Source of the DNA: Escherichia phage P817
Reading direction: 5' to 3' (one strand)
Sequence record: MZ826699.1
Length of the DNA stretch: 50,751 nucleotides
Positions 3,869 through 30,970 of the stretch are shown here, in pieces; within the stretch, counting starts at the first letter, position 1; each line of letters begins with the position of its first letter. Below the pieces are notes generated by a model. That model was not told the DNA's origin, did not search any database, and was given only the letters and a program-made list of their open reading frames with translations. A program made the position numbers and the translations under genes.

Positions 3869-4112
3869 TTCTGCTTCCTCGTTCGTTTCGATGGGGTAAC
3901 TATACAGCTACCCCGATTATGAGTTTTAACAAAAAGTGCTATCGTTGGTGATTTCGTGCAATCTTTTTCAACGCCAACCATATTTTAAAGCTGAAAATTT
4001 CAGGTTTTGTGAATCGTCGCTTCCCGTACTGTCGGCAAAGGCGGCGAACTCGTCGCTTATCAATCCACAGGTCAGTAATTATCTTTTCTGATTTGATTAG
4101 CTTCATGACTAT

Positions 4113-4272
4113 TACCCTTCGTTTTCGTCAAATTGTTGATTGTTGATCTGAGAGCGAACCTCTTTAACCATCTCTGAGAACTCATCGGCTGTGCACTGCA
4201 TAGTCTGAGTGGCCAGTAGTTGCTTAAGGATGACGGCTTGCTTATCTGACAGGTTGATAGTAATCATTTTCC
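4113..4272 (-). CDS. hypothetical small protein (about 52 aa, [10 protein letters not shown]...)
   Basis: Read by eye from reverse complement; below ORF-track cutoff. Confidence 0.25.
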
Positions 4273-4429
4273 AAGCACCCCTTTTGTTTTCAGATTGTGG
4301 CGGTAGAGCTGCATAACATGCCCATTGTGATGATTGCTTGATGGATACTCTTTCATATCGCTTTCCTCTCGTTTGGTGTGAACTAACTATAACAAAACCC
4401 GCCGGAGCGGGTTTAGCAATTCGTGCTAT

Positions 4430-5047
4430 TTACCAAGGAATATCATCGGCCCACTCGTCGATTGCAGGACGGATACCACAGGCGCGAACAACCGCCAGGA
4501 CGCCACCTTCAATATCACCATTCACAAGATGCACGTCATGCTCGTTATATTTCTTGTAATCAGAAAAATGCGATTCCTTTATGCGAATGTAATCACGGCT
4601 ATCTCCCGCGAATGTCTTGCCATCCATGAACAGGCGGACCAGGGTAACATCGTGACCATCTTCAACGAGCCTGATCACTTCATCGGGGAATCCGCCATCA
4701 GTACACACAAAGCTGAATCCTTCATCACACAGTCGGATATGTTCACTCATCAGCTTACCGAATTGCTGATTGCCAAAGAGTGGCTTAACTACCGTCTCGC
4801 TAATCCAGATCATGAACTCACGGCAGGTCTTGCCACCAAGAAAGCTCTGAGGCTGTTCTTTCTGATCTCGGTCATCGTATGCAGTGATGAACTTTGAGAA
4901 ATCTCTGGCACCAAGGATGGATGCTGCAATCTCAAACATCGGACGCTTGAAGCTGGTCGGGATGCAATTGTAATCTGCTGCCAGTGCATTGCCGATCGTG
5001 TCTTTACCTACGGCAGCAGGGCCGTTTAGAATGATAATCTTTGACAT
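4430..5047 (-). CDS. P-loop kinase, polynucleotide 5'-kinase-like
   Basis: Walker A LNGPAAVGKDT at N-terminus (start taken at MSKIIIL with RBS AGGAAT); adjacent to HAD phosphatase gene. Confidence 0.55.
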   Translation of the reverse strand: MSKIIILNGPAAVGKDTIGNALAADYNCIPTSFKRPMFEIAASILGARDFSKFITAYDDRDQKEQPQSFLGGKTCREFMIWISETVVKPLFGNQQFGKLMSEHIRLCDEGFSFVCTDGGFPDEVIRLVEDGHDVTLVRLFMDGKTFAGDSRDYIRIKESHFSDYKKYNEHDVHLVNGDIEGGVLAVVRACGIRPAIDEWADDIPW

Positions 5048-5096
5048 TTTGATATTCCTGAGTAGTGGGCGCAATGTGCGCCCGTTAAGTTTATTT

Positions 5097-5714
5097 TTAT
5101 TTACCGCTTACGAGATTGCATTTTTTGCACTGGCGAACACCATGCGGAGGTAGCGGATCGCTAAATTCGTGCTCGCAAACTTTCTCTACGCCGTGAGACT
5201 TAAGGCCGGAGTGCACGCTGTCTCCATAGTCACACACCTGATAGGTAGTGATGCCGAGGCTTCGGAAGTGCGCGATAACGTTAGGACTATCATCAAAGGC
5301 CGCGGTGATGCGGTGCAAGCCAATGTATCGTAAAAATTCTTCCTTGATGATCGTATCCTTGCGATTGTCATCAGCCTGGCGCATGACAAGAACGTTGTAT
5401 TTAGCGCCAGCATCATACAGCCATTGCGTTGATTCTTCAACAACTGCATCCGATCGACCAGTAAGTACGATGATGAAAGCGCCGGAAGCGAACAGGCCAT
5501 TCATTACGTCAATCGTTTCCTGGAATGGCGTGTCGAACTTGCTAAGAGAGTTAAATTCAAGCCACGACTCGGTGAGGTGTAAATCCTTGGTCGGCAGCTT
5601 ATGCAGGCGGTGAGTTCCGTCTGACAGAGTGCCATCGTAATCAAAGATGTAAACTTTCTTGTTTACTGCTACCGTTTCAAGGTGATGCTTAATCATGGTG
5701 TAAAGCTGGTTCAT
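5097..5714 (-). CDS. HAD-superfamily phosphatase, polynucleotide 3'-phosphatase-like
   Basis: HAD motif I FDYDGTL near N-terminus; 205 aa. Confidence 0.6.
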   Translation of the reverse strand: MNQLYTMIKHHLETVAVNKKVYIFDYDGTLSDGTHRLHKLPTKDLHLTESWLEFNSLSKFDTPFQETIDVMNGLFASGAFIIVLTGRSDAVVEESTQWLYDAGAKYNVLVMRQADDNRKDTIIKEEFLRYIGLHRITAAFDDSPNVIAHFRSLGITTYQVCDYGDSVHSGLKSHGVEKVCEHEFSDPLPPHGVRQCKKCNLVSGK

Positions 5715-5786
5715 TTTTAACTTCCTTTCGTGTGGTTGGTGTGGGGATTATACCAGTCAGGATGAATCCCCTTTTAACAAAAAGTG

Positions 5787-6590
5787 CTATTTGATATAGA
5801 ACTGAGCCACTACGCCACCATCAGGATTTGTGATTGCGTATGCGTCACCGATCGTTGCCTTGGCATTCATAACCTTACCAATTCTCCTGGCATTCCAGCG
5901 ATAATCTCCTTTTAAATCAGAGACGAATGCATCTTGTACGATATTAATAATGCTCGGCTCACACCCTGTCTCACATTCATCAACTTCATACTCATACTCA
6001 CAACCGTTGATAAACATATTTCCGTTAACATGGTAGCAAACAGCCACCTTGCGATCGCGTGCTGATTCACATTCACCAACCGCCCATACGTGATTATCGC
6101 TATAACCGTAACCGCAGCTTCGTGGTTCCATTTTCGCGGTTGACATGTTAAGCGCCTTGCCTTCACCGAAATTGCTACCGAAAGTGAACTTGGCATCTTT
6201 CGTCAGGTAATCAAACTTTGCGCCATCATCTACGACGGTTTTCCCTGGGCCAGCCGCAAGCTCATTCACGAATGCATCGACAGTGCTGTGACACGGATCG
6301 CCATTGTACTTAGGCAAATCCTTGAACAATTGCTCACATGCTTCGTGCACCAGCTTACCTACAGCTTCTTTGATTGCCTGCTCAACATGGTCAGCGATAA
6401 TCGACGGTGCAGAAATTTGATGTTTTTGAGTCGATTCTAAGGCCTTTAAACGTGCCTGTAAGGAATCGATTTCTTTTTTATGCATTGCGTAGGATACCCA
6501 CGCTCCATCGTCGCAGGATTGCATTCCGACGCCGTGAATATTGACGCTGGTTGGCACTGACACAGGGATATAACGGTTGATGCTGTTCAT
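5787..6590 (-). CDS. hypothetical Cys-rich protein
   Basis: 267-aa ORF; C-terminal half rich in Cys/Glu/Tyr (CEYEYEVDECETGCEP). Confidence 0.5.
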   Translation of the reverse strand: MNSINRYIPVSVPTSVNIHGVGMQSCDDGAWVSYAMHKKEIDSLQARLKALESTQKHQISAPSIIADHVEQAIKEAVGKLVHEACEQLFKDLPKYNGDPCHSTVDAFVNELAAGPGKTVVDDGAKFDYLTKDAKFTFGSNFGEGKALNMSTAKMEPRSCGYGYSDNHVWAVGECESARDRKVAVCYHVNGNMFINGCEYEYEVDECETGCEPSIINIVQDAFVSDLKGDYRWNARRIGKVMNAKATIGDAYAITNPDGGVVAQFYIK

Positions 6591-6671
6591 ATGTGATTCC
6601 TCAGTTGGTTTGTGTTCACTTGACAGGAGACACTATAGCTAATGTCTCCGAGCAAGTTTTAACAAAAAGTG

Positions 6672-6890
6672 CTATTCGATGAATCCGGCGCGAATTGCAG
6701 TTTCAAGTGTGACATACTGCTTAGCCGTCAGTGATGAGTGATAGGTAAAGATGCCAGCCTGGATACCCTTTACCAACTGATCCTGCGTAATGCCTGAGAT
6801 ATTAATAATCCCGTATCCGCCACCAGTGCGCAGGACCACATCGCCGACCGCACAAAATTCAATGCCTTTACTGTTAGTGTAGACTTGCAT
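6672..6890 (-). CDS. hypothetical protein
   Basis: 72 aa; stop codon overlaps intergenic box. Confidence 0.4.
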   Translation of the reverse strand: MQVYTNSKGIEFCAVGDVVLRTGGGYGIINISGITQDQLVKGIQAGIFTYHSSLTAKQYVTLETAIRAGFIE

Positions 6891-7255: not shown

Positions 7256-7642
7256 TCATAAGTAACCCTTCCCTACAGTTTCGCCAACTTCACGTGATGC
7301 CTTTAACTTGTTCCAGAAATCGAACGGGCCGACTGGCTCCCATGAGTTTGCAGGGATGTGCGGCTCTGATTCGCGAACAATTCCATTCCACCAACCAAGC
7401 TCAGTATCGCTATTGCGCTTATATCCGCCACCCATATTGAATACACGATCCAGTTCAGTAGCACCGACAACAACCCGATCCTTGAATACATCCTGAATAA
7501 TTTTAGGCTCATTGCTTATATCTTTAATCTCAACAACCACAGGGTAGTTATCAGGGTTAGATACAACCTCAATCTCATGAGGCTTACGACCTGGTTTCAG
7601 TGAATAGATTGACGGGTTGAGTAAACGTACTTTCATTTGCAA
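7256..7642 (-). CDS. hypothetical protein
   Basis: 128-aa ORF. Confidence 0.45.
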   Translation of the reverse strand: MQMKVRLLNPSIYSLKPGRKPHEIEVVSNPDNYPVVVEIKDISNEPKIIQDVFKDRVVVGATELDRVFNMGGGYKRNSDTELGWWNGIVRESEPHIPANSWEPVGPFDFWNKLKASREVGETVGKGYL

Positions 7643-7717
7643 TTCCTCTTATTGGTTGACTTTGCTTCAATAAGGCCACTATATCAAATGGCCTTGCGGA
7701 AGGTTTAACAAAAAGTG

Positions 7718-7906
7718 CTATTCGAATTTTTCGTTGTGGTGAATGACCTCAGCCACGTAAATCTTTCTCAAGAACCACTCCTGCGTTCCAGTGGAAGTAA
7801 TCTTGTGCATCTTCCATACCTGGTGCCAGGGCAGATACTCAATATCCTCAGCCAGTGCCGTGAACGCTTTGCCGCAGTGAGTGTAAATCGTGGTGTAGTT
7901 AGTCAT
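7718..7906 (-). CDS. hypothetical protein
   Basis: 62-aa ORF preceded by conserved leader GGTATACTTCTTTCATACCAAC. Confidence 0.4.
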   Translation of the reverse strand: MTNYTTIYTHCGKAFTALAEDIEYLPWHQVWKMHKITSTGTQEWFLRKIYVAEVIHHNEKFE

Positions 7907-8069
7907 TTAGTATCTCCCTTGTTGGTATGAAAGAAGTATACCAGTCAGGGAGAATATCGTTTTAGCAATTCGTGCTATTTGACCACAACTAGGAAGATTA
8001 TCACCAGGAACAGAAGCGCCCAGGATAACCCAACAAGAAGCAATTGCAGCACGTCAACTAATTTGAACT

Positions 8070-8387: not shown

Positions 8388-8484
8388 TAACGATTTCGAC
8401 AGTGACGTTATCGCTATTGGTCATCGTGTCAATCCAGCAATCGTCATCGTCCATATCCTGGAAGCGCTTGCGATCGGTAATCAT
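8278..8484 (-). CDS. hypothetical acidic protein
   Basis: 68 aa, Asp-rich. Confidence 0.35.
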   Translation of the reverse strand: MITDRKRFQDMDDDDCWIDTMTNSDNVTVEIVIDDDSGAFPMQDPATVRAMGEHLIKMADYMERHNEQ

Positions 8485-8711
8485 AAAACCCCCTTCTCAG
8501 CGCGGTGGGCCGATTCCATCAGGTGACACGCCAGTTGGCGCGCCTGGTCTGGCGTGTACACCATGTAACTTGATGCGTCAACATACTCTTCAGGATTGAA
8601 GTCAACGCACACCTTGAATGCAAAACCCTGGGCGCTGCTATGCAGTTTCTTTACCATTACCTCGGCCTGTTCGCCTGAGTCGTCAGCGATGCGTACGGCG
8701 GTTGTGCTCAT
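8481..8711 (-). CDS. small protein, paralog family member A
   Basis: 76 aa; shares VRIxD..QAEV..DF(N/D)PE(E/G)Y..Y(T/S)PD.AR.LA..AEK with ORF 9439..9651. Confidence 0.45.
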   Translation of the reverse strand: MSTTAVRIADDSGEQAEVMVKKLHSSAQGFAFKVCVDFNPEEYVDASSYMVYTPDQARQLACHLMESAHRAEKGVL

Positions 8712-8790
8712 AAATTACCCCTTAGTTGATTGTTTCACTTCAATGAGTGCACTATAGCAAATGCACTCACGGCAGTTTTAACAAAAAGTG

Positions 8791-9081
8791 CTATCGTTCA
8801 TCTTCTCTGGAGCATCCCTTGCCGCAACCATGGCGACCAACTTCCACGATCCCGACACCGCTTAAGCCGATGTATTCCTGACCAGTGTCCTTATCGGTGA
8901 TGACGTATATCGCTCTGACGTTCTCATATGCCAGTTCATCCCTGAACTCCTGAATCTTCACAACCTGGACGCGATCGCTGACATTCACTGGCATCTTCTG
9001 CCGAGCTTCTGAATCTACACGGGTGCTTCCGAAATCACATCCAGCCAGAGCCAGTGCTGCTAATAAAATTAGTTTCTTCAT
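8791..9081 (-). CDS. putative lipoprotein
   Basis: Signal peptide plus lipobox MKKLILLAALALAGC. Confidence 0.5.
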   Translation of the reverse strand: MKKLILLAALALAGCDFGSTRVDSEARQKMPVNVSDRVQVVKIQEFRDELAYENVRAIYVITDKDTGQEYIGLSGVGIVEVGRHGCGKGCSREDER

Positions 9082-9438: not shown

Positions 9439-9651
9439 TCATAACTTCTCTGCCTCTTCCGCTGCCAGGATAAGCGCCGCAGCTAATTTGCGGGCCGCAT
9501 CAGGTGAGTATTGCATCAGTGTTTGGCAATCTGCGTAACCCTCAGGATCGAAGTCCAGGTTGACAACATTACCGCGAACTGTTCTCATCGTTACACTGAC
9601 CTCAGCTTGGTCAAAGTTAACATCATCAATACGTACAGTTTCCATAATCAT
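9439..9651 (-). CDS. small protein, paralog family member B
   Basis: 70 aa; paralog of 8481..8711. Confidence 0.45.
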   Translation of the reverse strand: MIMETVRIDDVNFDQAEVSVTMRTVRGNVVNLDFDPEGYADCQTLMQYSPDAARKLAAALILAAEEAEKL

Positions 9652-9715
9652 TTCCTCTTCGTTGTTGATAGGGTAATCATAGCTGACTACCCGATTTATT
9701 GTTTAGCAATTCGTG

Positions 9716-10279
9716 CTATTCACCGTTCAGGAGTGATTTAGCTTTCCGATAAAACTCGACAGCCTTTCTGACCTCATCTGCATCATAGCCATGAATCATG
9801 TCTGAGCTTGCCTGCAATTTGCTATGAGATTTGCGCTCAACCGATCTCCATGGGTCGCACCACTTGTGAATGTCTCTCCCATACATGCCCACCAGGTATG
9901 GATGTGCATATATCTTGTCACCAATAAGGCAAATGATTCCCGCGTCCTGTAGTGATGGTAGGATGTTGTCAATCAGGTTATTCATTACTCCATTACGCTC
10001 GACGAACGGCTGGACCTTTCTGATCGCCTCATATGTTGAGCGAACTCCCACAACGCCTTTTCCATTTGTCGCTTGCTTCCAGATCTTTTCAACCACGACG
10101 CATTGTTCACGATTTAGGTTTGCGCGACGCATAACTTCCACTTCGCACCAGTACTTTTGTGACTGTCGGTATCCGTTAGCATTGATTGCAACTCGTAGTG
10201 GTTCAAGCCCATCTTCCGTAGCAATCTCCATAATCTGCTCATCCGTCAATTTGTCCTCGTTGAAGTCAAACATCCCCAT
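9716..10279 (-). CDS. domain-deleted paralog of the 527-aa P-loop protein (N- and C-terminal segments only)
   Basis: MFDFNEDKL..LRVAINANGYRQSQ and NGKGVVGVRS.YEA.RKV.PF...CLIGDKIY shared with ORF 13772..15355; central P-loop region absent. Confidence 0.55.
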   Translation of the reverse strand: MGMFDFNEDKLTDEQIMEIATEDGLEPLRVAINANGYRQSQKYWCEVEVMRRANLNREQCVVVEKIWKQATNGKGVVGVRSTYEAIRKVQPFVERNGVMNNLIDNILPSLQDAGIICLIGDKIYAHPYLVGMYGRDIHKWCDPWRSVERKSHSKLQASSDMIHGYDADEVRKAVEFYRKAKSLLNGE

Positions 10280-10800
10280 TATTTTGTCTCCTTAATCATT
10301 TCCTGGTACATTTTGATTGCCTTGATGGCCCCTGTAATCTCATCGCCTTCAAACTCAGTCACGGATGGCATCAGCTTGAGTATTTTGACCTTAAAGTCGC
10401 TCACAGCCTTCTCTGCAATCTGGCAGTTTGCCTTCACTCGCTTTCCTGTCTGGATTGCGCCATCAACCAAAGACAGATAAGCACACCGAACCTCGACGTC
10501 ATCACCGAAATCACCATCCTTAATTGAAAGTTTTGCACGAACGTTTGCCTCCTGTATCTCTGGCATCCTGGCTACCGTATTGGCGACATATGACGCCTTC
10601 AGCTTTGCCATACTGTACTTGCCACCTACATCCAGATCCTCACGACTTATGCCTCCTATATCACTAGATGTGAGGCCGTAAACCTGGCGAGCTATTAGAT
10701 GGATTGGGACGTGGTAGCTGCGGTTCTCGGACTTGAGCGCTTGCTCCGCCATGTAGCGGACGACATCGCCCAGGCTTACGCGTTGATTATGATTTGACAT
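10279..10800 (-). CDS. hypothetical protein (first gene of leftward early operon)
   Basis: 173-aa ORF adjacent to AT-rich divergent control region. Confidence 0.5.
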   Translation of the reverse strand: MSNHNQRVSLGDVVRYMAEQALKSENRSYHVPIHLIARQVYGLTSSDIGGISREDLDVGGKYSMAKLKASYVANTVARMPEIQEANVRAKLSIKDGDFGDDVEVRCAYLSLVDGAIQTGKRVKANCQIAEKAVSDFKVKILKLMPSVTEFEGDEITGAIKAIKMYQEMIKETK

Positions 10801-11519
10801 AGATATTACTCCTGATTGGTGGTCTTCGTTAAGATGGGTGCAATACTACCAGCGTGGTTACATGTTATCAAGTGTTATTGATGCAAATGTTCGACTTAGT
10901 TACGTTTTGCGACCTCTCGCCCCAGATATAGCTCAATGTAAAGTCTGCGTATAGTTTGTAGATAAGGATTTTTAGCAAATGGGCCCCTACATGACCTTTT
11001 ATTCCTACAATGTCGTCATATTCCTACAGGTGTAGGAAAATATCATAGAAAACAATCGCAATATCACATATCCACTATCTACATTATCTACATATATATA
11101 TATTAATAATAATAATATAGATAAATGGTTATTATATAAGGATATTTTAATGTAACCATGGCGTAATTCTGCGTGATAAGCGTACACGATTCCTACGGTG
11201 GGCTTCTTCATCTACACGGCGTAACTTTTATAACGCGTATGCGCTAGAAACGTGTGGCGGGAAAATCCTACCAGGCGATCAGGGGATCAGACTTCACCCC
11301 ATCATTCCCCCCATCAATGAATCATTGCTCAATTCGCAACAATCGAAAACATCATTGCATCGGAAGCAATATTGCTGTATGTGCAATAGTCATGATAATC
11401 ATTGCAATAGCTGCAACAATCCATAAATCCAACGAATGGCACTTTTTTCTAATGACCGATCAGTTGTGATTCGCTATTGTTACTCCATCGAAACGAGTGA
11501 AGAGAACTGGAGAAAATAA
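10801..11519. promoter_or_regulatory. AT-rich divergent control region with palindrome TTCCTACAGGTGTAGGAA, direct repeats (ATTCCTACA, ATCTACAT, ATCATTGC x3); candidate early promoters or origin
   Basis: Non-coding, flanked by divergent genes; about 70 bp shares about 80% identity with 30710..30805. Confidence 0.45.
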
Positions 11520-11699
11520 ATGAGCACTGTTAAAATTCATTGCTACGTCGTGATGGCTGAGCCACGCGAGCCGGAATATGACACTCAGGTGCACTGCGTG
11601 TGCCTCAGTGAGCAGATGGCAGAGCAGGTTTGCGAGAAGATGAACGCAACCGACAAGTACAACCAGTACGACTACTACGAAACGGAGCTACAGAAATGA
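11520..11699 (+). CDS. hypothetical small protein (59 aa)
   Basis: Read by eye: RBS GGAGAAAATAA then ATG; ATGA overlap with next ORF. Confidence 0.35.
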   Translation: MSTVKIHCYVVMAEPREPEYDTQVHCVCLSEQMAEQVCEKMNATDKYNQYDYYETELQK

Positions 11700-12172: not shown

Positions 12173-12352
12173 ATGGGGAATCGGTTCAGCAAAAGACGGC
12201 TGTTACGCAATGGTGATATTGCCAGGGTTCAGCAAAATGCTGCTGTTGCGTTCGGTAAAGCGGCACGTCAGAACCTGACTGGTTATCAGCCATGCATAAC
12301 GCCGACGCCGTTTTACGTGCATAAGCAGCGACCACCAAAAAGCCGTAAATAG
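12173..12352 (+). CDS. hypothetical basic protein
   Basis: In frame of track ORF 11996..12352; stop TAG lies in intergenic box. Confidence 0.25.
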   Translation: MGNRFSKRRLLRNGDIARVQQNAAVAFGKAARQNLTGYQPCITPTPFYVHKQRPPKSRK

Positions 12353-12430
12353 CACGAATTGCTAAACGAAGCCTCACGGATTGAGGCATAATAATTTCAT
12401 CGAAACGAAGTACACAAAGAGGAAGTAAAA

Positions 12431-12655
12431 ATGTCAGTTAAAGCTCAGAACGTAGTAGCACACATCGAAGCAAAAGGCCGTGCAATCGTCAAGCTGGACC
12501 GCGCCGCAGGCGTAAGCCAAATCACCATTACGCGCCGTGAGTTCGACCGCTACGTTGTTGGCACTCATCCAGGCTCAATCATCCGTAGCCTTACCCGTGC
12601 TGAGATGGTTAAGCTGTTAAACGAAAACTCACTTTATATCAACTCCTGGAGCTAA
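12431..12655 (+). CDS. hypothetical protein
   Basis: 74 aa; strong RBS AGAGGAAG; preceded by box/stem-loop/box module. Confidence 0.5.
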   Translation: MSVKAQNVVAHIEAKGRAIVKLDRAAGVSQITITRREFDRYVVGTHPGSIIRSLTRAEMVKLLNENSLYINSWS

Positions 12656-13122: not shown

Positions 13123-13283
13123 TGCTCAAGCCATCTGAGATAAACTACTTCGATCTTGAAGTCATTAGTGCCTATAGCGGAAAGGGATGGCCATGCGGTG
13201 ATTTGTTTAACGAGGATTTGCTTGAGAGCCATGAAACAATGCTCAAAGCGATAGAGAAAGCACGAAATAGCACGAATTGCTAA
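13122..13283 (+). CDS. hypothetical small protein (53 aa)
   Basis: Read by eye; ATGA overlap with previous ORF; stop inside intergenic box. Confidence 0.3.
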   Translation: MLKPSEINYFDLEVISAYSGKGWPCGDLFNEDLLESHETMLKAIEKARNSTNC

Positions 13284-13346
13284 AGCCCTTCGGGGCTTTT
13301 CCTGTATATTGATCTCATCGAAACGAAACACAAAAAGGCAAACAAA

Positions 13347-13700
13347 ATGACAATCACCACTAAAAACTTCGTTACCTCCGACAATCGCCTACTGAAAGCT
13401 CGCGTCAGCAAGAATGGATTTGAACAGGTCAAGATCAATGGAAAGTGGGTCAACCTGGATATCAAAGGCCGTTACATCAAGACTAAAACCCTTTACGTTA
13501 CCAAGGTGAATCACAAATCTTCCGTCAAAAAAGACTTCACCGAAGGCAAGCGCTACCAGGTTTCTCTCCATGCTGGATTGGGAAGCAACGCTGGCTATAT
13601 TTTTGACAACGAGGGTCATGCGTGGCAGTTGTACCGTGACGAGGATGTTGGGTTTGTATCACTGTGTGGAACTTATCGCTGGGAAGCTCAGTACAAATAA
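13347..13700 (+). CDS. hypothetical protein
   Basis: 117 aa; preceded by box/stem-loop/box module. Confidence 0.5.
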   Translation: MTITTKNFVTSDNRLLKARVSKNGFEQVKINGKWVNLDIKGRYIKTKTLYVTKVNHKSSVKKDFTEGKRYQVSLHAGLGSNAGYIFDNEGHAWQLYRDEDVGFVSLCGTYRWEAQYK

Positions 13701-13771
13701 GTAGCATTTTTTGGCAAGCGGTCTTACCATAGGTGCGTTAACATTGGCGCACCAACTAAGGAGTTATTTTA

Positions 13772-16283: not shown

Positions 16284-16341
16284 AAAATCCTCATCTAGTT
16301 TGTGGTATGGTTTGATCACTATACATTGCAAATGGTGAAAA

Positions 16342-17833: not shown

Positions 17834-17904
17834 GATTGAATCCTCTGTGAGTGAGGTATGAATATAGCGCCTTCCGGCGCTACAGTGTTAGGCAATTCGT
17901 GCTA

Positions 17905-19844: not shown

Positions 19845-19914
19845 GGTGATTCCTCGTCTCGTTGGTATGAAAGAAGTATACCCGCGCGGTGGCGGGTATG
19901 TTTAGCAATTCGTG

Positions 19915-20154
19915 CTATTGGTTAAAATCTTCAGGGCAATCTTGCTTATACTCTAGAAGGTCTTTTTTAATAGACTCTCCCCATGAATTTACCGGATTGC
20001 CTTTAACCTCATCAAACGACATGTCGAGAGATCCGGAGAAATTCCACGCATCACCTTTAAACCCTGCCGCCTTAAGCTTTGTGCAAACAATACCTCTAAA
20101 TAAAAGGAACTGACCATCTTCATTTAAATTAACTTTCTTATTCATATTAAACAC
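19915..20154 (-). CDS. hypothetical protein
   Basis: 79-aa ORF, AT-rich. Confidence 0.4.
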   Translation of the reverse strand: MFNMNKKVNLNEDGQFLLFRGIVCTKLKAAGFKGDAWNFSGSLDMSFDEVKGNPVNSWGESIKKDLLEYKQDCPEDFNQ

Positions 20155-20875
20155 TCCGTTTACGTGGTTTCTTGCGGCTTACACCTGGGCAAATATCGCT
20201 AACTGAAACATAATGAGTTTGCTGGGTTTCGCCTTCTTTAAGTTTTCGCATGATGAAGATTACAGATCCCTTATTATTCCCATCTACAGGCTTTCCGGTC
20301 AGTCCAGATATGAATGCTAGTCGCCCCGTCCGGCAATATTCCTGTCTGTCAATCTCTGTGATGTCAGCCTCAATCCAGATGATTTCAGCCGCGTTGCGTC
20401 GGGCTTCTGCAAACCAAGCCGTTGAGTTATCACCAGGAAGCAACATATCAATCTGATTGTTGTGTTCCATTTGCTCAATCGCTTTCTTAACGAAAGGATC
20501 TGGATGTGAGTACGGCGGATTAAGCCAGATGTGCTTATTGCTACCCCACCAAATTTTTAGGCAGTTCACTTGTTCGCTGTAGAACTTTTCGCACACAGCA
20601 TTGTTAGCGCTGGCGGCGGCGTCAATGTCATACTTACCATAGCGCGACTCCATCCATGAGATCACTTCTCTGTCAGTTGCCCAAAGGTCACGAACTGCGT
20701 CAGGCGTCTTGCTTCCGGCGTATCGGTTTCCAGTTACCCGATAGAATGTGTCCGGCTTTACAGCTTGGTAATGACCGTTCCCAGGAACAAGCGCATTAGT
20801 AACAAAATTTTCACGCTCGATCTGCTCAAAGCTAACGAATGCGTCATGAGTATACTTGTCGTTTGAGTCGATCAT
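20147..20875 (-). CDS. dam: DNA N6-adenine methyltransferase (Dam-like)
   Basis: NPPY catalytic motif (HIWLNPPYSHPD); 242 aa. Confidence 0.7.
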   Translation of the reverse strand: MIDSNDKYTHDAFVSFEQIERENFVTNALVPGNGHYQAVKPDTFYRVTGNRYAGSKTPDAVRDLWATDREVISWMESRYGKYDIDAAASANNAVCEKFYSEQVNCLKIWWGSNKHIWLNPPYSHPDPFVKKAIEQMEHNNQIDMLLPGDNSTAWFAEARRNAAEIIWIEADITEIDRQEYCRTGRLAFISGLTGKPVDGNNKGSVIFIMRKLKEGETQQTHYVSVSDICPGVSRKKPRKRSV

Positions 20876-20876
20876 C

Positions 20877-21149
20877 TTATTTAACCTCGGTAACTTTGCA
20901 GTTATTAACAGCGACGAACCCGCCTACGCTAACTTTTACCTGACTTTCAGTCACGTTGTAAACCGCCTTCCCCAAGAAAGTTTGCAGTTCATAGTGATCG
21001 CCTTCACGCTCAATAACAACGCCCTTGTCTGAAACAATCTGCGACTTGGTTACTGTGAAGGATTCCTTACCGCAATCGTAAAACTTGGTATCTTCTGCAC
21101 AACCTGCCATTGCCACAACTGCCAGTAGAGCGATGATTGACTTTTTCAT
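20877..21149 (-). CDS. putative lipoprotein
   Basis: MKKSIIALLAVVAMAGC signal peptide plus lipobox. Confidence 0.5.
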   Translation of the reverse strand: MKKSIIALLAVVAMAGCAEDTKFYDCGKESFTVTKSQIVSDKGVVIEREGDHYELQTFLGKAVYNVTESQVKVSVGGFVAVNNCKVTEVK

Positions 21150-21215
21150 TTTGTTTTCCTTGGTTGGTTACTTCGTTTCGATGAGGTGATAATACACCAC
21201 CTCACTGATTCGTCT

Positions 21216-21644
21216 TTAGCAATTCGTGCTATTCAGCATATCAGCAACTGCTTTCTTGTATTCCTCCTGGCCGTACGCCACCGCCGCGAACCCGCCACGC
21301 TCTCGGACACGCCGGAGGAACTCTTTCTGCTCCTTGCTGACTGGTTTTGCCTTTCCTTTCCCGCTCTTATTTACTCGCTTCAATTCTATGGCCCCGAACG
21401 GGTATTTACCGAACGGGCCGAGAAGAAATACAAAATCACTAACACCCTTCAATAACCCGCTCTGAGAGTCAACAAGTGCTGAATGCATCGTCTTTACCCC
21501 CTCATTAACGGTGTGCCAGAATAATAGCTCTCCATGCCTAACTTTAGTCCAGGTCACGCAATCGACCTGGTGCTTGTTCTCTGTCCATGTATCCGATTTG
21601 TCTGGAGTGTAATATTCCAGGTAGTCGCCTTTGTCTGTGATCAT
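21216..21644 (-). CDS. VRR-NUC domain nuclease (PD-(D/E)xK)
   Basis: GVSDFVFLLGPFGKYPFGAIELKRVNKSGK...SKEQKEFLRRV pattern; immediately downstream of helicase. Confidence 0.55.
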   Translation of the reverse strand: MITDKGDYLEYYTPDKSDTWTENKHQVDCVTWTKVRHGELLFWHTVNEGVKTMHSALVDSQSGLLKGVSDFVFLLGPFGKYPFGAIELKRVNKSGKGKAKPVSKEQKEFLRRVRERGGFAAVAYGQEEYKKAVADMLNSTNC

Positions 21645-23743
21645 AAGTTACCGTCCAATCCAAAATCCTTACGTGAGATAATATCCTCACCCTTTGCATT
21701 CTTGCGGTGAGTTACCCGCACCGGATGCGCTATGTGGTGAGCATTGTTTAAAATCATTTTCGCACTTCTGTAAGCCGCCATTAATTTCGCGACCTTACTG
21801 TCATGCACATGAGGCAATACCCCTTTTTGTTTCCATATCGTGTGACATACCTGCGCCGTTGATTGAGGGAAAAACTTCTCATACGCGATGAAGTTAACTC
21901 CCACTGAGTCTGTCAGGTCGTACCGATAAAGAATACCAGTCTGATTACGTGTCAGAGTTACTTCAAAGCTGTTAACTGTGCACCAGTCGTTTTTGGTGTA
22001 AGCCTTACCAGTCAGGTTATCATTTGGATCTTTCAGGCTAACGTCGCAGCAACGGCATATTCTCGCCACTACGTCATTCTCAGCGCCACACCCCTTAACG
22101 ATAACCTCGCCAGTGCGATCATCAATTTGGTCTTCGCAGATACGAGACTTCCAGAAATACTCACAACGATTGCCATTTTCGTCTCTGTGAATGCAGCGGC
22201 GGGCGTAAAAACTGTTCTCTGTTCCGCACAGTTCACATTTTTTCGGTTCTTCCTTACCATCAAATCGGCGCTGGTACTGAGCCTCTTCAAGAATAGGATC
22301 GAAGTAAAGCTGACCAAGCTCATCCATAGTGCCAGCGAAATCCCATACCAGGTGATCTTTCTTCACCATTCCCATCGCTTTTTGCCACGGCTTAAGCAAT
22401 CGCATACCTCTACCAAGCAACTGTATTAGAAGGGTAAGCGAGCCGATCTTGCGAAGTATTACCGAAAAATCCCAAAACGGAACGTTAACGCCAGTGGTTA
22501 GCGCTACCACCTGGAATATGTATTTGATCTCGCCACGGTTCGCCGCCTCCAGTATCGCTTGTCGTTTTTTGGTGTTCGTCTTCTCCGTGATGATCTCATA
22601 GGTAGCGTCAGGTGGCAGATAGCTCGCCGCCTCTTTGCAATGGCGCTGGCCTGCGCACGTAATCAGTACGCCATTTCGCTTTTTCGCTTCCTCTACGACC
22701 ATCCCCATAATTCGCTTTGTCATGCTGGCGTTGTCATGGATTTTCTTTTCCATCGCCTTCATTTCTTTCTGGCTAAAATCTGCCGTCCCGTCCTGGCCTG
22801 ATGCCTTGAACTCATCCAGATCATATCCAGCGTCACCGACACTTCCGAAAATGGTTGGGACAACAGAGCCGAACTCAATAAGGTAGCTGGTGTCGATGTT
22901 AGTAACCTGCTCACGCCAGAACCCGGGTAACTTAGGGTTATCGACAACAATCGGAGTTGTGCCTCTGAACTCAGAACCAGTCATGCCGAAGATTCGCAAT
23001 TCCTTCCCGTTCTTCTCTTTGCAGCGGCGCATCAATTCAGTGATAATGATCGTGTACTGGCTTCGTTTGGTTCCAAGAACAGGCTCGCCAGTCTTCCGGC
23101 TTATCAGTAATTGCTTATCCATAACCTGAACGCCAACCTCTACGCCATCAAGGTATCCATTGACATAGCCCTCGCTGTTTTTCGGGTAGTCAACGAATAC
23201 ACGCTCATCCTTTTCAGTGAGCATCATCTCAATCGTTTCTTCGTTGTCGATGGCGGCGGCAAGGTCTTCCCAATCCACCTGGTGACATTCATCAATCCCA
23301 AGCACCATGGGCGTAAAGTCACCAAGCGCCTTAAACAGACCGTTTGCAACCGAACCTTCCGATCCAACAACGATGGGGAAGTAAGCTGATTTTGTGTTCA
23401 GGCCAGCACAGTAAACTGAGTTAGGAACGCCGAAGTTTGAGATTTCTTCACTATCCTGAGCAACAATGTCGCCCTGGCGTGCAAGAATCATCATCGATAA
23501 GCCCATCTCTTTGACGCGCGATGCGATCATGGCAAAGCCGATTGTCTTACCTGCCGACACTGACGCCTTAACGATGAATGGATGCTTATAGCGAGCAATG
23601 CGCTTGCCGATCTCGTCATACATTACGCACTGATATTCATAAGGAACCATGTCACCGAACGTGAATTTATCCTGAATCTCTTTAATCTTCTGCGGTCCGA
23701 GTTCTTCTATCTGTTTTTTAATGGATTTAATGCGCATAGCCAT
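21641..23743 (-). CDS. superfamily 2 DEAD/DExH-box helicase with C-terminal Cys-rich zinc-ribbon-like region
   Basis: Walker A SVSAGKT, motif II GIDECH; C-terminal CELCGT...CIHRDENGNRCEYFW. Confidence 0.8.
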   Translation of the reverse strand: MAMRIKSIKKQIEELGPQKIKEIQDKFTFGDMVPYEYQCVMYDEIGKRIARYKHPFIVKASVSAGKTIGFAMIASRVKEMGLSMMILARQGDIVAQDSEEISNFGVPNSVYCAGLNTKSAYFPIVVGSEGSVANGLFKALGDFTPMVLGIDECHQVDWEDLAAAIDNEETIEMMLTEKDERVFVDYPKNSEGYVNGYLDGVEVGVQVMDKQLLISRKTGEPVLGTKRSQYTIIITELMRRCKEKNGKELRIFGMTGSEFRGTTPIVVDNPKLPGFWREQVTNIDTSYLIEFGSVVPTIFGSVGDAGYDLDEFKASGQDGTADFSQKEMKAMEKKIHDNASMTKRIMGMVVEEAKKRNGVLITCAGQRHCKEAASYLPPDATYEIITEKTNTKKRQAILEAANRGEIKYIFQVVALTTGVNVPFWDFSVILRKIGSLTLLIQLLGRGMRLLKPWQKAMGMVKKDHLVWDFAGTMDELGQLYFDPILEEAQYQRRFDGKEEPKKCELCGTENSFYARRCIHRDENGNRCEYFWKSRICEDQIDDRTGEVIVKGCGAENDVVARICRCCDVSLKDPNDNLTGKAYTKNDWCTVNSFEVTLTRNQTGILYRYDLTDSVGVNFIAYEKFFPQSTAQVCHTIWKQKGVLPHVHDSKVAKLMAAYRSAKMILNNAHHIAHPVRVTHRKNAKGEDIISRKDFGLDGNL

Positions 23744-23827
23744 AGTATTAAATGCCTTTCATGTTCGTTCGATTGACGTTATAATAACAACCATCGAAAC
23801 CAATGTTTAACAAAAAGTGCTATTGAG

Positions 23828-24310
23828 GTGATGAAAATGAATGCAAATGATAAGCGTACTCTTAACGGTAACAACGGAACTATCCGCACGGAAGATAAGA
23901 AGCAGCGCAAACGACCGTCAGGTTACTATGTTCTCAAGGATGAAGTAAAGGCCGGATTAAGAGCGCGACTTGATATTGTGTTTGAGTTCTACGGCAGCAA
24001 GGCGAACATGGCGAAACAATTAAAAGTTACTCGCCAGGCCGTTGAGGAATGGTTTAAGCGTGGGATGATGTCGGCCCGTGGCGCTCAATTGGCGCACAAC
24101 CGATACAAGCGAACTGGCGAAGGGTTCCGCGCTACATTCTGCCGACCGGATCTCCAATTCGATGGAAATGGAAAGCCGCTGACACTCCGGTGCAAAAAAC
24201 GTCACATGCTGCGCGTTGTTACTGAGGCTGAATTAGCTACTAAGCCAGAATGTCGATCGTGGCGCAAGATTAAGGCCGCTAACGAAGCAGCACGGAAAGC
24301 TAAAGAATAA
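23828..24310 (+). CDS. putative HTH DNA-binding protein
   Basis: Candidate HTH ANMAKQLKVTRQAVEEWFKRG; basic protein; first gene of a rightward unit. Confidence 0.4.
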   Translation: MMKMNANDKRTLNGNNGTIRTEDKKQRKRPSGYYVLKDEVKAGLRARLDIVFEFYGSKANMAKQLKVTRQAVEEWFKRGMMSARGAQLAHNRYKRTGEGFRATFCRPDLQFDGNGKPLTLRCKKRHMLRVVTEAELATKPECRSWRKIKAANEAARKAKE

Positions 24311-24315
24311 CAATC

Positions 24316-24350: not shown

Positions 24351-24362
24351 GGAGTAAATACA

Positions 24363-25304: not shown

Positions 25305-25399
25305 CAATTACCCGCTACGGAGGGTTTTTTTATGCCTTACGTAATGCTATACTGCACTTTAGCAATTCGTGCTAAACACCAATATAGGAGTTGATTATT

Positions 25400-28170: not shown

Positions 28171-28171
28171 A

Positions 28172-28618: not shown

Positions 28619-28656
28619 TGTATTTTCCTTTTTGGATGGGGCCGAAGCCCCGTTAA

Positions 28657-29313
28657 TTAGAATTGTTCGATGGATTCAGATTGTACAGGTTCGGACGGTG
28701 CATTTGCAACCTTGTCTTCAACCTTTTGAGTATCGGCCTTTTTTGCTGGCTGGAAACCGCGAGCTCTACCGATGATCAATTCAGCCTTGCGCTTCTGCAA
28801 GTGGTCTTCTGCAATCTTCCACTCAGCCGCGCCGAGTGAACCTTTAGCGCTCTTATAGATTACCTGGAGGTCTTCCAGTTTTTCACAGTTGGTGATCAGT
28901 TTTTTGTAGTCTGCTGCCGTGCGCTTCGCGATTTCTGCGTCGTCATCGCTCTGAGTGATTCCAAGCGCCGCGCACAATGCGTAACGGCGACCGTATGATG
29001 TTGTTGAGCCGTAAGCCTGGGCACTAATCTTCTCGATCGGCATGTTGTACTGGAACGCAAGCCACTCGCCAGAACTGTGAAGTATGAGCGTCTCAATGTG
29101 CATTACCTTTTCGGTTGACGTGTCCAGGTTTGACTGGATAACCATAAGGTCATGCTCTTTTAGCGCTGGTTCAACGGCCTCCAGAACGTCCGTCAGGTTT
29201 GAGTAATGGTTTTTCAGGTGAGTGTTAAATCCTGATTTTTTTGCGATAGCAAACTGCTTTTTAGCTGCAATTAGAGCGGATGAAACATTCGAAAACTTCT
29301 CTGATGTACGCAT
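28657..29313 (-). CDS. Erf-like single-strand annealing protein (putative)
   Basis: 218 aa; located between exonuclease and SSB. Confidence 0.45.
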   Translation of the reverse strand: MRTSEKFSNVSSALIAAKKQFAIAKKSGFNTHLKNHYSNLTDVLEAVEPALKEHDLMVIQSNLDTSTEKVMHIETLILHSSGEWLAFQYNMPIEKISAQAYGSTTSYGRRYALCAALGITQSDDDAEIAKRTAADYKKLITNCEKLEDLQVIYKSAKGSLGAAEWKIAEDHLQKRKAELIIGRARGFQPAKKADTQKVEDKVANAPSEPVQSESIEQF

Positions 29314-29395
29314 TATATATACCTTTGTTTACTTCGTTTGATTTACGGTGATTATAGCAAATCACCGCATTCGTGTTTAGCAAAAAATGCTACGA

Positions 29396-30430
29396 TTAAA
29401 GAATATGCTTAAACTGTTTCATGATCCAGTCAGGGGTCTCAAGCTCTATTTCCGGTTCTCCGTTGTTGTATGAAGGCCACACGTCGTTTTCTTCGCACAT
29501 TGAGAAAGTGTGAATTACGCTCATATACTGCGCACGACCAATCTTAAGCTGATCACCACTCATCCGGTAAGCCATCGGCAGGTAAGGCTCTTTCTTCTCC
29601 TGTGCCAGTAGTCGGACAACTACAGGTCTTGTTTCCTCAAAGCATTTAACGAACAAGTCGCGCTGCAATGCCATCTTGAGATAGTATCCATGATTGAATG
29701 CCAGGCGCGGGAAATCAGTCGGGTTAGCGCTCATTGTCGTTTTGTAATCAGTGATGACGACAATTTCAGGATGAATGTCAGGATCGTAACCCATGCGCCG
29801 GATTGCCTCTGTATCCTTAACGATGTCAACATGGTCAAGTCGCACCTTAACTTTAACGCCACAAATCACGCCAAACAATGAATACTCACGGAATGCAGTC
29901 TCACTGTTCATGCAGGCGTTATGTTCAGGAATCATCTCAAGAACCTGGCGCATACTGACGCAGGCGTCGTAGTCCTCTGCCTTAACCAGCTCCACTCCGT
30001 CTGCCCACGCCTGACATTGTGCGATCATGTCAATCAGCCACATGACGTTAAGGTCTTCACCACAATCAACCATCATTTTAATCAACTCTGGATATTGCTT
30101 GCCGCTTGTACCAGTCAGGCCAAATGATTTTAGTTTCGTTGCCAAGGCCGCTTGGCTTGTGATCACGTTTTCAATCTCGCTTTCTTTCGGTGCGCGGCGA
30201 TACTGGCGTTCAAACAGTGCCTTACTCTCGAAATTGGTATGCGACTGCGTACCGAAGACCAGTGCCTTAGTCGTCGAGTTCATTTCAAACTTCCACGCCG
30301 CAGGGCAAGTACTGTGGATCTTGCTGAGTGACGAGCCTGATACATACTCGGCGGTCCACTCATCTTTGCTGTGGTAAAAGTCGTTGCTCATTTCTTCTGA
30401 CGTGAAGTATTGAAACAGTGGCTTGGTCAT
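29396..30430 (-). CDS. PD-(D/E)xK recombination exonuclease (RecE/YqaJ-like)
   Basis: RLDHVDIV...VVITDYKTT motif typical of RecB-family nucleases; first gene of recombination operon. Confidence 0.5.
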   Translation of the reverse strand: MTKPLFQYFTSEEMSNDFYHSKDEWTAEYVSGSSLSKIHSTCPAAWKFEMNSTTKALVFGTQSHTNFESKALFERQYRRAPKESEIENVITSQAALATKLKSFGLTGTSGKQYPELIKMMVDCGEDLNVMWLIDMIAQCQAWADGVELVKAEDYDACVSMRQVLEMIPEHNACMNSETAFREYSLFGVICGVKVKVRLDHVDIVKDTEAIRRMGYDPDIHPEIVVITDYKTTMSANPTDFPRLAFNHGYYLKMALQRDLFVKCFEETRPVVVRLLAQEKKEPYLPMAYRMSGDQLKIGRAQYMSVIHTFSMCEENDVWPSYNNGEPEIELETPDWIMKQFKHIL

Positions 30431-30970
30431 CTCTTTAATCCTCGTTCGTTGTTGATGCTGGTAACTATACGCGCTTGGTTGCGTTAGTCAAGTGGTTACA
30501 TGTAGATATTTGTAATCACGTGTATGCAATGGCGTCAGTTACATAAAATGGCTATCCAGACCAGCTATAGCTTGATGTAAACGGCGTGTATATCGTGTAT
30601 ACCATTTTTCGCGGAGGGTGCATTGGTGTATGCGTGATTAGATACTGTATGAATATACATATTAGAAATTTATAAGCGGAACACTCTATAGAAGTAGTTA
30701 CACGATATACACAGTAATATATATAATAATAATAATTATAGTAGAAGGTTGATATATATAGATATTTTAATGTAACTATCGCGTAACTAGGCGTAACTGC
30801 GCGTATATCATTTTTCGCGGACGAGATTGCATACATCGAGTTACATCGGTTACGTGTATATAGTTGCATTTTCATACTTGACACCAAAAAGCACGAATTG
30901 CTAAAGCTCAATTAATGGTTAGTGTATAGTTACCTCATCGAAACGAAAAACACTTAATAAGGATTCAAAA
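30431..30970. promoter_or_regulatory. AT-rich divergent control region homologous to 10801..11519
   Basis: Shares TGGTTACATGT and about 70 bp ...AATAATAAT...GATATTTTAATGTAAC... with region 1; internal repeats GCGTAACT x2 and TATATC...ATTTTTCGCGGA x2. Confidence 0.45.

Follow-up and report, generated by a model that had tools for sequence, protein, structure and literature searches.

The window analysed here, by which we mean the whole stretch of 50,751 nucleotides recorded for Escherichia phage P817 (MZ826699.1), is a complete T1-like phage genome (Drexlerviridae) of 49,384 bp followed by an exact end repeat of 1,367 bp. Bases 1–1367 are identical to bases 49385–50751, with 0 mismatches; this would reflect either a true terminal repeat or a wrap-around of the assembly, and whatever is located in it, such as the terminase open reading frames (ORFs), is therefore present twice in the window. 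Among annotated phages, the nearest is Escherichia phage CJ19, a member of the genus Nouzillyvirus, and the host of the closest relatives is E. coli. Our subject is a short box that recurs between the genes of this genome, together with the sequences that separate it from the next gene, including in most cases a GC-rich hairpin; we call this unit a module. Boxes were aligned on themselves in five T1-like genomes (the window, CJ19, T1, TLS and Rtp; n = 100 boxes), and hairpins were surveyed in 86 distinct modules from six genomes. Transcription start sites (+1) are throughout positions predicted from sequence.

The intergenic box and its -10 element

A sequence-only reading of the window had described the box in two types, found between genes. 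This observation holds: 17 strong copies of the box are present in the window, for a chance expectation of 0.06–0.10 (about 0.1). Ten of them belong to type 1 (TTTAGCAATTCGTGCTAT) at no more than two mismatches, and type 2 (TTTAACAAAAAGTGCTAT) is represented by six exact copies plus a copy at 29376 with three mismatches. The coordinates proposed at first were mostly one base low (3925 should replace 3924, for example), those at 7704, 12349, 13267 and 30888 being exact. The orientations were right, with 13 boxes directed towards minus-strand genes and three (12349, 13267 and 30888) towards plus-strand genes; the odd copy between two plus-strand genes (25358) does point against its neighbours. 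Every copy lies between ORFs, and several overlap or supply the upstream stop codon. The supposed absence of the module from the structural block is not total, since a copy at 45506–45523 and a degenerate one at 35588–35607 are present there.

On the transcribed strand, the box reads ATAGCAC-nnn-TTG(C/T)TAAA, with column counts A94 T96 A99 G100 C100 A100 C91 n W W(A51/T49) T96 T93 G99 Y(C57/T39) T95 A96 A100 A91. Its core, TAGCA-N5-TGYTA, is also a partial palindrome. The box as a whole is asymmetric: symmetric partners are lacking for C7, T11, A1, A17 and A18, and either C or T occupies position 14. The triplets GAA, TTT and AAA are interchangeable in its centre. The box is invariant across Drexlerviridae genera with proteins only about 50% identical, and 17 copies are carried by the Klebsiella phage Sweeny (a webervirus). 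A pattern scan of IMG/VR returned, among the matches listed, almost exclusively T1-like contigs of 42–52 kb with many copies each. Among these matches, two contigs (IMGVR_UViG_2974607408_000001, 61,437 bp, and IMGVR_UViG_3300029615_000175, 42,765 bp) show one marbox-plus-(-10) match each (the marbox is described below), and most of the others several; these two contigs, of sizes atypical for T1-like phages, may represent chance matches or other phages with the same arrangement.

A hexamer of the form nAnnnT is located 19–21 nt past the 18-mer box in 89 cases out of 100, for a background of 19% (binomial P = 5e-51); the distance is exactly 20 nt in 74 cases. The composition of this hexamer (columns 39–44) is T69 A80 T69 A62 n T81, where A2 and T6 are invariant by construction of the spacing test; its commonest forms are TATAGT, TATAAT, TATTAT, CATAAT, TATATT and TATGAT. 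At -15/-14 (columns 36–37), T is found in 50% and G in 71% of the sequences, so that the dinucleotide TG is present in approximately half to two thirds of the modules and missing from about one third. Seven nucleotides past the -10, the predicted +1 (column 51) is an A in 79% of cases, preceded by C in 60%. The A2/T6 hexamer with an upstream TG carries the signature of a sigma-70 -10 element, extended where TG is present, and the A located seven bases further on is where a start is expected. No recognisable -35 hexamer was found 16–18 bp upstream of the module -10s. A scan for consensus -35/-10 pairs gave no excess over shuffled sequences and missed the modules; promoters devoid of a -35 are expected to escape such a scan. 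A fixed -10 and an A start following the box, with no -35, therefore point to a promoter in which the box, at -50 to -33, takes the place of the -35 element. All modules with a -10 are co-oriented with the next gene.

An atypical promoter was among the options left by the sequence-only reading, and it is the one that the strictly spaced -10, the frequent TG, the A at +1, the lack of a -35 and the co-orientation with genes sustain. The spacing of 22 bp between TTGCTA and TATAG had been measured correctly; the strict rule, however, runs from the end of the box to the hexamer (20 nt, range 19–21). We rejected TTGCTA as a -35 hexamer because of this 22-bp spacer, and the hexamer located 17 bp upstream of the -10 (AAAnnn) is not -35-like. 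The CATCGAAACGAA box, thought to lie 20–30 nt before the ribosome-binding site (RBS), lies at that distance from the start codon and only 2–15 nt from the RBS. It covers transcript positions -1 to +11, beginning at about +1, and thus coincides with the predicted transcript start. Predicted leaders are A/C-rich, 22–35 nt long, and often begin with AUCGAAACGAA. The 22-mer GGTATACTTCTTTCATACCAAC noticed in two leaders is indeed common to both (7915–7940 and 19855–19880); it spans the -10 TATACT, the discriminator and the first transcript bases, and contains a small inverted repeat (GGTAT...ATACC).

Correspondence with host marboxes

MarA, SoxS and Rob are host activators of stress and antibiotic-resistance responses, monomers with two helix-turn-helix motifs that act at marboxes. 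Salicylate-type compounds and oxidants bring about the induction of MarA and SoxS, and RamA is the Klebsiella counterpart (PMC12052159, PMC10268841); Rob is expressed constitutively and kept at a high level (PMC9178005). The marbox consensus published for E. coli by the Grainger laboratory is 5'-gcactaattgctaaa-3' (PMC5684230), and gcannwwntgnnaaa has been used as a search pattern (PMC12052159). Seventeen window boxes match this pattern at 10 of its 10 specified positions and gcactaattgctaaa at 12–14 of 15 positions. The type 1 sequence GCACGAATTGCTAAA reaches 14/15 and the type 2 sequence GCACTTTTTGTTAAA 12/15, and several boxes of CJ19, Rtp and T1 (GCACTAATTGCTAAA) match the consensus at 15/15. 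Variation among the boxes follows the degeneracy of the marbox itself (Y7, W10 and Y14). TTTAGCAATTCGTGCTAT is moreover identical at 14 of 18 positions to the marRAB marbox TTTAGCAAAACGTGGCAT, taken from the genome of E. coli MG1655.

The position of the box agrees with this identity. With two further bases, the 18-bp box becomes a 20-bp marbox at about -50 to -31, in which GCAC forms the A site (-47 to -44) and YAAA forms the B site over the -35 position. Twelve of the 16 strong window modules have 18 bp between this 20-bp box and the -10; among the other four, the gap measures 17 bp in three cases and 19 bp in the last, and it is again 18 bp in both weak members. All 16 strong window boxes with a -10, and 89 of 100 across the five genomes, are in the forward orientation, with GCAC...AAA directed towards the -10 and the gene. 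Class II marbox promoters have precisely a forward marbox overlapping the -35, with no recognisable -35 hexamer (PMC12052159, PMC10268841). In the micF promoter of MG1655, the marbox ACAGCACTGAATGTCAAAAC is followed by 18 nt and the -10 TAGAAT, hence by the same gap and in the same orientation as in the phage modules. The cryo-electron microscopy (cryo-EM) structure of the Rob-RNA polymerase-micF complex shows Rob contacting -47G and -45A of GCAC and displacing sigma region 4 from the -35 (PMC9178005); G4 and A6 of the phage box fall at -47 and -45 when +1 is set seven bases past the -10. The micF soxbox is centred at -41.5 (PMC9638938); for the phage boxes, the centre falls at -40.5 to -41.5 according to the base taken as the start.

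What had been called a phage-specific unit thus contains, in its box, the host marbox consensus in class II register. Each module is accordingly classed, on these features, as a predicted sigma-70 promoter of the class II MarA/SoxS/Rob type, and we put at roughly 0.6 the probability that the modules are class II promoters dependent on MarA, SoxS or Rob. The phage would then probably borrow host MarA, SoxS or Rob for the promoters of about 17 non-structural, presumed early, genes. The modules are listed in Table 1, with the boxes that lack a correctly spaced -10. For modules 11, 14 and 15, +1 is predicted at 17854, 23774 and 29344.

Table 1. Marbox modules and related boxes of the window (window coordinates; lower case in the -10 column, bases preceding the hexamer)
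Feature	Span	Strand	Marbox	Gap (bp)	-10	Predicted +1	Hairpin	Gene served and remarks
Module 1	3892–3942	-	3923–3942 (ATAGCACTTTTTGTTAAAAC)	18	TATAGT 3899–3904	~3892 (cATCGAAACGAA)	3893–3914, encloses -10	ORF 3656–3868
Module 2	4379–4429	-	4410–4429 (ATAGCACGAATTGCTAAACC; 14/15 to consensus)		tgtTATAGT 4386–4391	~4379	4396–4413, spacer, terminator-like with T-run	tiny ORF, then ORF 4112–4267
Module 3	5740–5790	-	5771–5790		tggTATAAT 5747–5752	~5740	5743–5771	ORF 5097–5714
Module 4	6625–6675	-	6656–6675		TATAGT 6632–6637	~6625	6626–6649 (GGAGACA/TGTCTCC)	ORF 5787–6590
Module 5	7671–7721	-	7702–7721		tgaTATAGT 7678–7683	~7671	7672–7695	ORF 7256–7642
Module 6	7928–7978	-	7959–7978		tggTATACT 7935–7940	~7928	no strong hairpin	ORF 7718–7906; leader 22-mer in common with module 12
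Module 7	8743–8794	-	8775–8794		tgcTATAGT 8751–8756	~8744	8743–8770 (GAGTGCA/TGCACTC)	ORF 8481–8711
Module 8	9669–9719	-	9700–9719		TATGAT 9676–9681	~9669	9671–9692	ORF 9439–9651
Module 9	12349–12399	+	12349–12368		CATAAT 12387–12392	~12399 (cATCGAAACGAA)	12371–12387, spacer	ORF 12431–12655
Module 10	13267–13317	+	13267–13286		TATATT 13305–13310	~13317	13283–13298, spacer, terminator-like with T-run	ORF 13347–13700
Weak degenerate member	13701–13751	+	GTAGCATTTTTTGGCAAGCG	18	TAACAT 13739–13744			upstream of helicase ORF 13772–15355; orthologous to T1 box 46141
Weak degenerate member	16268–16318	+	ATAGCACCTTTTGCATAAAA	18	tggTATGGT 16306–16311			upstream of ORF 16342–16806
Module 11	17854–17905	-	17886–17905 (ATAGCACGAATTGCCTAACA, B site shifted)	19	TATATT 17861–17866		17863–17884	ORF 17660–17833
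Module 12	19868–19918	-	19899–19918		TATACT 19875–19880	~19868	19878–19899, spacer	ORF 19611–19844
Module 13	21181–21232	-	21213–21232		TATTAT 21189–21194	~21182 (cATCGAAACGAA)	21181–21205	lipoprotein ORF 20877–21149, then 242-aa ORF 20147–20875
Module 14	23774–23823	-	23804–23823	17	tgtTATTAT 23781–23786			helicase ORF 21641–23743
Full-strength marbox	25356–25375	-	25356–25375					no correctly spaced -10; against plus-strand neighbours, between primase and tail-fibre genes
Module 15	29344–29393	-	29374–29393 (GTAGCATTTTTTGCTAAACA)	17	tgcTATAAT 29351–29356		29344–29369	Erf-like ORF 28657–29313
Module 16	30888–30937	+	30888–30907 (AAAGCACGAATTGCTAAAGC)	17	TATAGT 30925–30930	~30937 (cATCGAAACGAA)		ORF 30971–31213
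Degenerate forward marbox-like	35588–35607	-	ATCGCACGAAAGGCTAAACA					presumed 5' untranslated region, overlaps RBS of J-like gene 32205–35585
Opposite-orientation marbox	45506–45525	+	45506–45525 (box 18-mer 45506–45523)					against late genes; upstream of major capsid gene 44496–45455

Some neighbouring features deserve mention. After module 2, the minus strand of 4268–4355 holds an ORF of about 30 codons (ATGAAAGAGTAT...), below the 40-aa limit of the ORF list, whose stop overlaps the start (ATGA) of ORF 4112–4267. The 242-aa ORF served by module 13 occupies the position of the DNA adenine methyltransferase gene of CJ19. At the junction of the divergent leftward and rightward blocks (10800–11550), we observed no marbox and ordinary sigma-70-like candidates, such as TTGATA-17-TGnTAGTAT on the minus strand (10871–10843); these are possibly activator-independent promoters.

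Hairpins and boxes at late genes

The hairpins with TATAG in the loop, already noticed in the letters of the window, are found in its modules as described. Among the 18 tabulated window modules (16 of them strong), 14 fold to between -8.9 and -15.4 kcal/mol, and the 89 boxes with a -10 from the five genomes give a mean folding z-score of -3.0 relative to shuffled sequences. In 51 of the 86 modules surveyed, the hairpin encloses the -10, with a 5' arm near -24 and a 3' arm in the discriminator, ending at -3 to +3; these hairpins have a mean energy of -13.4 kcal/mol and T-poor tails (1.4 T in 8 nt). The hairpin is located in the spacer or ends within the -10 in 21 of the 86, and is missing from 14. 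Pure spacer-type hairpins, 14 in number, end in T-rich tails with 3.9 T in 8 nt; seven intermediate ones have 2.9 T. A terminator scan also picks up the spacer hairpin at 4396–4413, and the T1 annotation marks some of these hairpins as terminators.

The hairpin does not follow the box as a separate element in the direction of transcription, as had been proposed, but overlaps the spacer, the -10 and the discriminator. Located at about -22 to +3, it should therefore be absent from the transcript of its own module and present only in read-through RNA from the upstream gene. The stems, in which the sequence-only reading had suggested looking for covariation among related phages, vary in sequence, with 59 different arms in 72 stems, and remain paired. 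Mismatches in the stems are, on the sense strand, G·T in 43 cases and A·C in 8 (15 versus 3 outside promoter columns, P = 0.008), and mean folding is -10.1 kcal/mol for the sense strand versus -7.8 kcal/mol for the antisense strand. The excess of G·T and the better folding of the sense strand indicate a structure used in sense RNA. With modest confidence, we consider that the hairpins most likely form 3' ends in read-through RNA, spacer hairpins with a T-run as putative leaky terminators, and hairpins enclosing the -10 more probably as structures that protect or process these ends. A cruciform, or a hairpin of the non-template strand aiding promoter opening, is only distantly conceivable, the span of 22 bp far exceeding a transcription bubble.

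Three boxes have no correctly spaced -10 and are associated with structural genes. Upstream of the major capsid gene, the late strand (minus, 45456–45560) contains TTGCGC, 16 nt and TGcTATTAT, a canonical-looking strong promoter located just past a strong bidirectional terminator; the -35-like hexamer is TTGACG in T1, TTGACC in CJ19 and TTGAAC in TLS. The opposite-orientation box supplies the 16-nt spacer and the TGcTAT of this promoter-like sequence, an arrangement conserved in CJ19, T1 and TLS; no box match was found upstream of the capsid genes of Rtp and Klebsiella phage Sweeny. The region upstream of rob in MG1655 (minus strand, about 60–80 nt before the rob ATG) contains CAGCAAAAAATGCTATTAT. 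It has in common with the phage capsid promoter-like sequence the 16-mer CAAAAAATGCTATTAT, in which ATAGCATTTTTTGCT, in the opposite orientation, overlaps an extended -10; the chance of such a coincidence is roughly 0.002. Repression of rob itself reportedly acts by way of a marbox located between the -35 and the -10 of this gene. In E. coli pbpG, a marbox located in the promoter spacer is associated with repression by MarA, SoxS and Rob (PMC12052159). The capsid promoter-like sequence resembles pbpG in having a marbox as spacer, here in the opposite orientation, and differs from it in that repression is only predicted in the phage.

The box at 25356–25375 lies at about +5 to +22 past TGcTATACT, the extended -10 promoter-like sequence of the tail-fibre gene (25330–25395), and 16 nt before the start codon of this gene. 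This arrangement is kept in CJ19, T1 and Rtp, and not clearly in TLS; the box is a candidate repressing site. Upstream of the J-like gene, the minus strand of 35585–35660 contains a terminator, TGTATAAT and the degenerate forward box ATCGCACGAAAGGCTAAAC, which is located downstream of a TATAAT and whose AAAGG is the RBS of this 1126-aa tail gene; the same arrangement is found in T1 (25021) and TLS (24908).

The location of boxes in or just past the capsid, tail-fibre and J-like promoter-like sequences suggests repression. As a speculation, the same factor may drive the presumed early genes and hold late genes down. Titration of a limited activator by replicating genomes, with about 20 sites each, or inactivation of the activator, would then produce an early-to-late switch. 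That the Drexlerviridae programme as a whole is wired to MarA/SoxS/Rob/RamA in this manner, with about 17 class II marboxes turning genes on, late marboxes turning genes off, and a switch by titration or inactivation, is a tentative proposal that we hold to be rather doubtful.

Candidate readers of the box

No homologue of MarA, SoxS or Rob was detected by tblastn in the window, T1, TLS, Rtp and CJ19 (nothing below E = 0.8), and a MarA/SoxS/Rob profile run on the full set of ORFs with 50 residues or more (n = 393) gave a best E-value of 0.78. The box remains unchanged while phage proteins drift to 50% identity, which argues for a host reader that is itself conserved. On binding to the box, a host activator would recruit RNA polymerase through the C-terminal domain of its alpha subunit (alpha-CTD) and sigma-70 region 4, as in the cryo-EM structures of Rob and SoxS at micF, and transcription would start at an A about 7 nt after the -10 to give an A/C-rich leader of 22–35 nt. 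As the phage encodes none of these proteins, the activator would be constitutive Rob, or basal or induced MarA and SoxS, and near-consensus sites could have been selected to capture a scarce activator.

Several points weigh against host activators. The case for them is a prediction from sequence, and the partial palindrome TAGCA-N5-TGYTA is compatible with a dimeric helix-turn-helix (HTH) protein of the phage. T1-like phages multiply rapidly in plain broth. Without induction, however, levels of MarA and SoxS are low, and Rob is described as sequestered and inactive until ligands such as bile salts release it (PMC9178005). A single-gene Keio screen with LL5, a TLS-like phage that has more than 90% identity to TLS, kept effects of about 20-fold or more on efficiency of plating and recovered only lipopolysaccharide genes, tolC, secB and ppiB, and rob, marA and soxS go unmentioned in the text or supplement examined of that paper (PMC7229145). 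This result implies that no single activator is strictly essential at the 20-fold level. Redundancy of the three activators, or basal activity of the extended -10, could have hidden an effect in that screen; the extended -10 may likewise provide basal promoter activity in uninduced cells.

The same promoter architecture could be served by a phage protein, the marbox likeness being then coincidental or convergent. The sequence-only reading had pointed to the HTH protein encoded at 23828–24310 (160 aa, T1 gp23 family, weak Cro/YdaS Pfam matches). Its gene is divergent from the helicase gene, its RBS adjoins the distal edge of marbox 23804–23823, and it is conserved in all Drexlerviridae examined. 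In this region (23744–24310), a perfect plus-strand TATAAT overlaps the minus-strand -10 TATTAT, and the promoters of the helicase and Cro-like genes may be face-to-face and mutually exclusive. The AlphaFold model of the protein (pLDDT 86) resembles all-alpha DNA-binding Cro proteins (3bd1, 6on0); it does not match the AraC fold, and we rejected the idea of a hidden MarA mimic. A Cro-like dimer bound at TAGCA-N5-TGYTA would have its palindrome centred at -42, a position that fits class II activation and recalls Mu Mor/C or lambda cI at PRM, and the failure of the Keio screen to recover a host activator speaks for it as well. However, C7 versus T11, A1 versus A17, and A18 break the symmetry, and position 14 is T in 39% of boxes, all of which the marbox code explains. 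The presumed recognition helix of this single-HTH protein is not the same in phages whose box is identical (window, TRQAVEEW; T1, SNQTVQGW; TLS, NLKTVWGW), and no base-contact position is invariant among 28 homologues. If every presumed early promoter required it, the phage protein would also first need another promoter for its own synthesis, and a match of 14–15 out of 15 to an unrelated host consensus, with the same spacing, is very unlikely to arise by chance. We consider binding by this protein unlikely, and prefer the host activators.

It is still less probable that the modules are activator-free promoters, where RNA polymerase would act on an extended -10 and the box would be an UP-like contact for alpha-CTD or sigma. 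The box does lie in the -33 to -50 zone where UP elements act (PMC11447400). Between about half and two thirds of the modules carry TG at -15/-14, and here again the Keio screen yielded no host activator; about one third of the modules nevertheless lack TG. UP elements are A/T tracts, and UP-dependent promoters retain a -35 hexamer; the invariant positions of the box include G and C (GCAC, TG), and no -35 accompanies it. Such a contact would also leave the exact marbox consensus and its register unexplained.

The options of an operator or of an RNA-processing or antitermination site, raised in the sequence-only reading, are not favoured: the box does not covary, and its asymmetric positions follow the marbox code. 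If the box acted in RNA, it would form a 5-bp stem with a pentaloop, comparable to a nut boxB, or an RNase site, and the second hairpin would control processing or antitermination. G4 can indeed pair with C14 or U14 in 96% of the boxes, the box is found at the 3' end of the upstream cistron, and the second hairpin behaves as a sense-RNA structure. Yet the stem of the box shows no compensatory change in approximately 100 copies, against the 59 arms in 72 stems of the neighbouring hairpin, its loop triplets (GAA, TTT and AAA) are interchangeable, and the distance from box to -10 is strict in DNA whatever the position of the hairpin. This makes a role in RNA very improbable. We think it just as improbable that the boxes are purely negative stoperators of the mycobacteriophage L5 type, with a bound protein blocking polymerase in one orientation: the orientation bias and intergenic position noted by the TLS authors (PMC11447400) and the repressive aspect of the boxes near late promoter-like sequences would suit them, but a roadblock would not require the boxes to stand at a fixed 20 nt from a -10 with TG and an A start, the Cro-like protein is the sole HTH regulator among 10 ORFs scanned for protein families, and the family is described as virulent (PMC11447400, PMC7718038).

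Other candidates were discarded on simple grounds. A sigma-54 promoter (TGGCAC-N5-TTGC) does not fit, since the box reads TAGCAC-N3-TTGC, 2 bp short and without GG, type 2 lacks the GC, and a sigma-70 -10 follows. A T7/SP6-like promoter (CTATAG) was dismissed because the family has no reported phage RNA polymerase (PMC11447400) and the hexamer varies as TAnnnT. Sites for IHF, Fis and CRP showed no fit by inspection.

The marbox reading makes the function of the repeat open to simple experiment. If it is true, a classic family of virulent coliphages would depend on host activators of antibiotic and stress responses for most promoters outside the structural block, an unusual kind of host dependence. 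Phage growth would then sense bile, salicylate, oxidants and resistance mutations of the mar or ramA type, and for TLS-like phages the same regulon would also raise the TolC receptor. The success of these phages would be tied to the Mar/Sox/Rob/RamA state of clinical Enterobacteriaceae, with a bearing on phage-antibiotic combinations, on the choice of phages against efflux-upregulated strains and on T1 contamination in fermenters. Compact and very strong marbox promoters would also become available for synthetic biology.

Comparison with known systems

The repeat itself is already published for TLS. The 2024 re-annotation of this phage, in which no more than three sigma-70-like promoters were found, described 18 intergenic direct repeats of 21 nt (consensus aaATAGCACnnnTTGnTAAAA), about 76 nt before start codons, and reported them also for T1, Rtp and Rogue1; it left undecided whether the repeat acts as a stoperator, as an enhancer site or as an UP element (PMC11447400). 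By its consensus and its co-orientation with transcription, the TLS repeat is the same element as the box of the window. The TLS paper gives no fixed spacing to a -10, no marbox identity and no opposite-orientation copies at late promoter-like sequences. Full-text literature searches, whose coverage excluded subscription journals, found no link between marboxes and phages, and literature searches found no transcript map of any T1-like phage.

In T4, phage proteins recognise the MotA box (TGCTTtA), whose centre is at -30, 11–13 bp from the -10. Like the T4 middle promoters (MotA/AsiA), the modules keep a host sigma-70 -10 and replace the -35 with a common upstream box; their box, in contrast, spans -50 to -31, at 18–20 bp from the -10, and matches the site of a host factor. 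As a MotA box proper it is in the wrong position, since the 18-mer ends 20 nt before the -10 and spans -50 to -33. The middle and late promoters of Mu have a -10 with no usable -35, and an activator site of about 18 bp near -42/-43 over the -35, where Mor and C, both phage-encoded dimers, bind dyad-symmetric sites. The phage modules resemble them by an activator site overlapping the -35 position and differ from them in that the box is asymmetric and equals the site of a host monomer.

The closest likeness is with the class II promoters of E. coli, of which micF is the archetype and lpxC P2, lpxL P1 and rfaY P1 are further members. The phage modules have in common with them the asymmetric 20-bp marbox with GCAC and YAAA, and with micF the forward orientation over the -35 position, the 18-bp gap, the lack of a -35 and the G and A at -47 and -45. 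They differ in number and quality, with 16–18 modules per genome, all near-consensus, whereas host sites are degenerate. In most phage modules, a GC hairpin also extends over the -10 and the discriminator, and the modules have a conserved transcript start (AUCGAAACGAA). Binding of the activator is known for the host sites and predicted for those of the phage.

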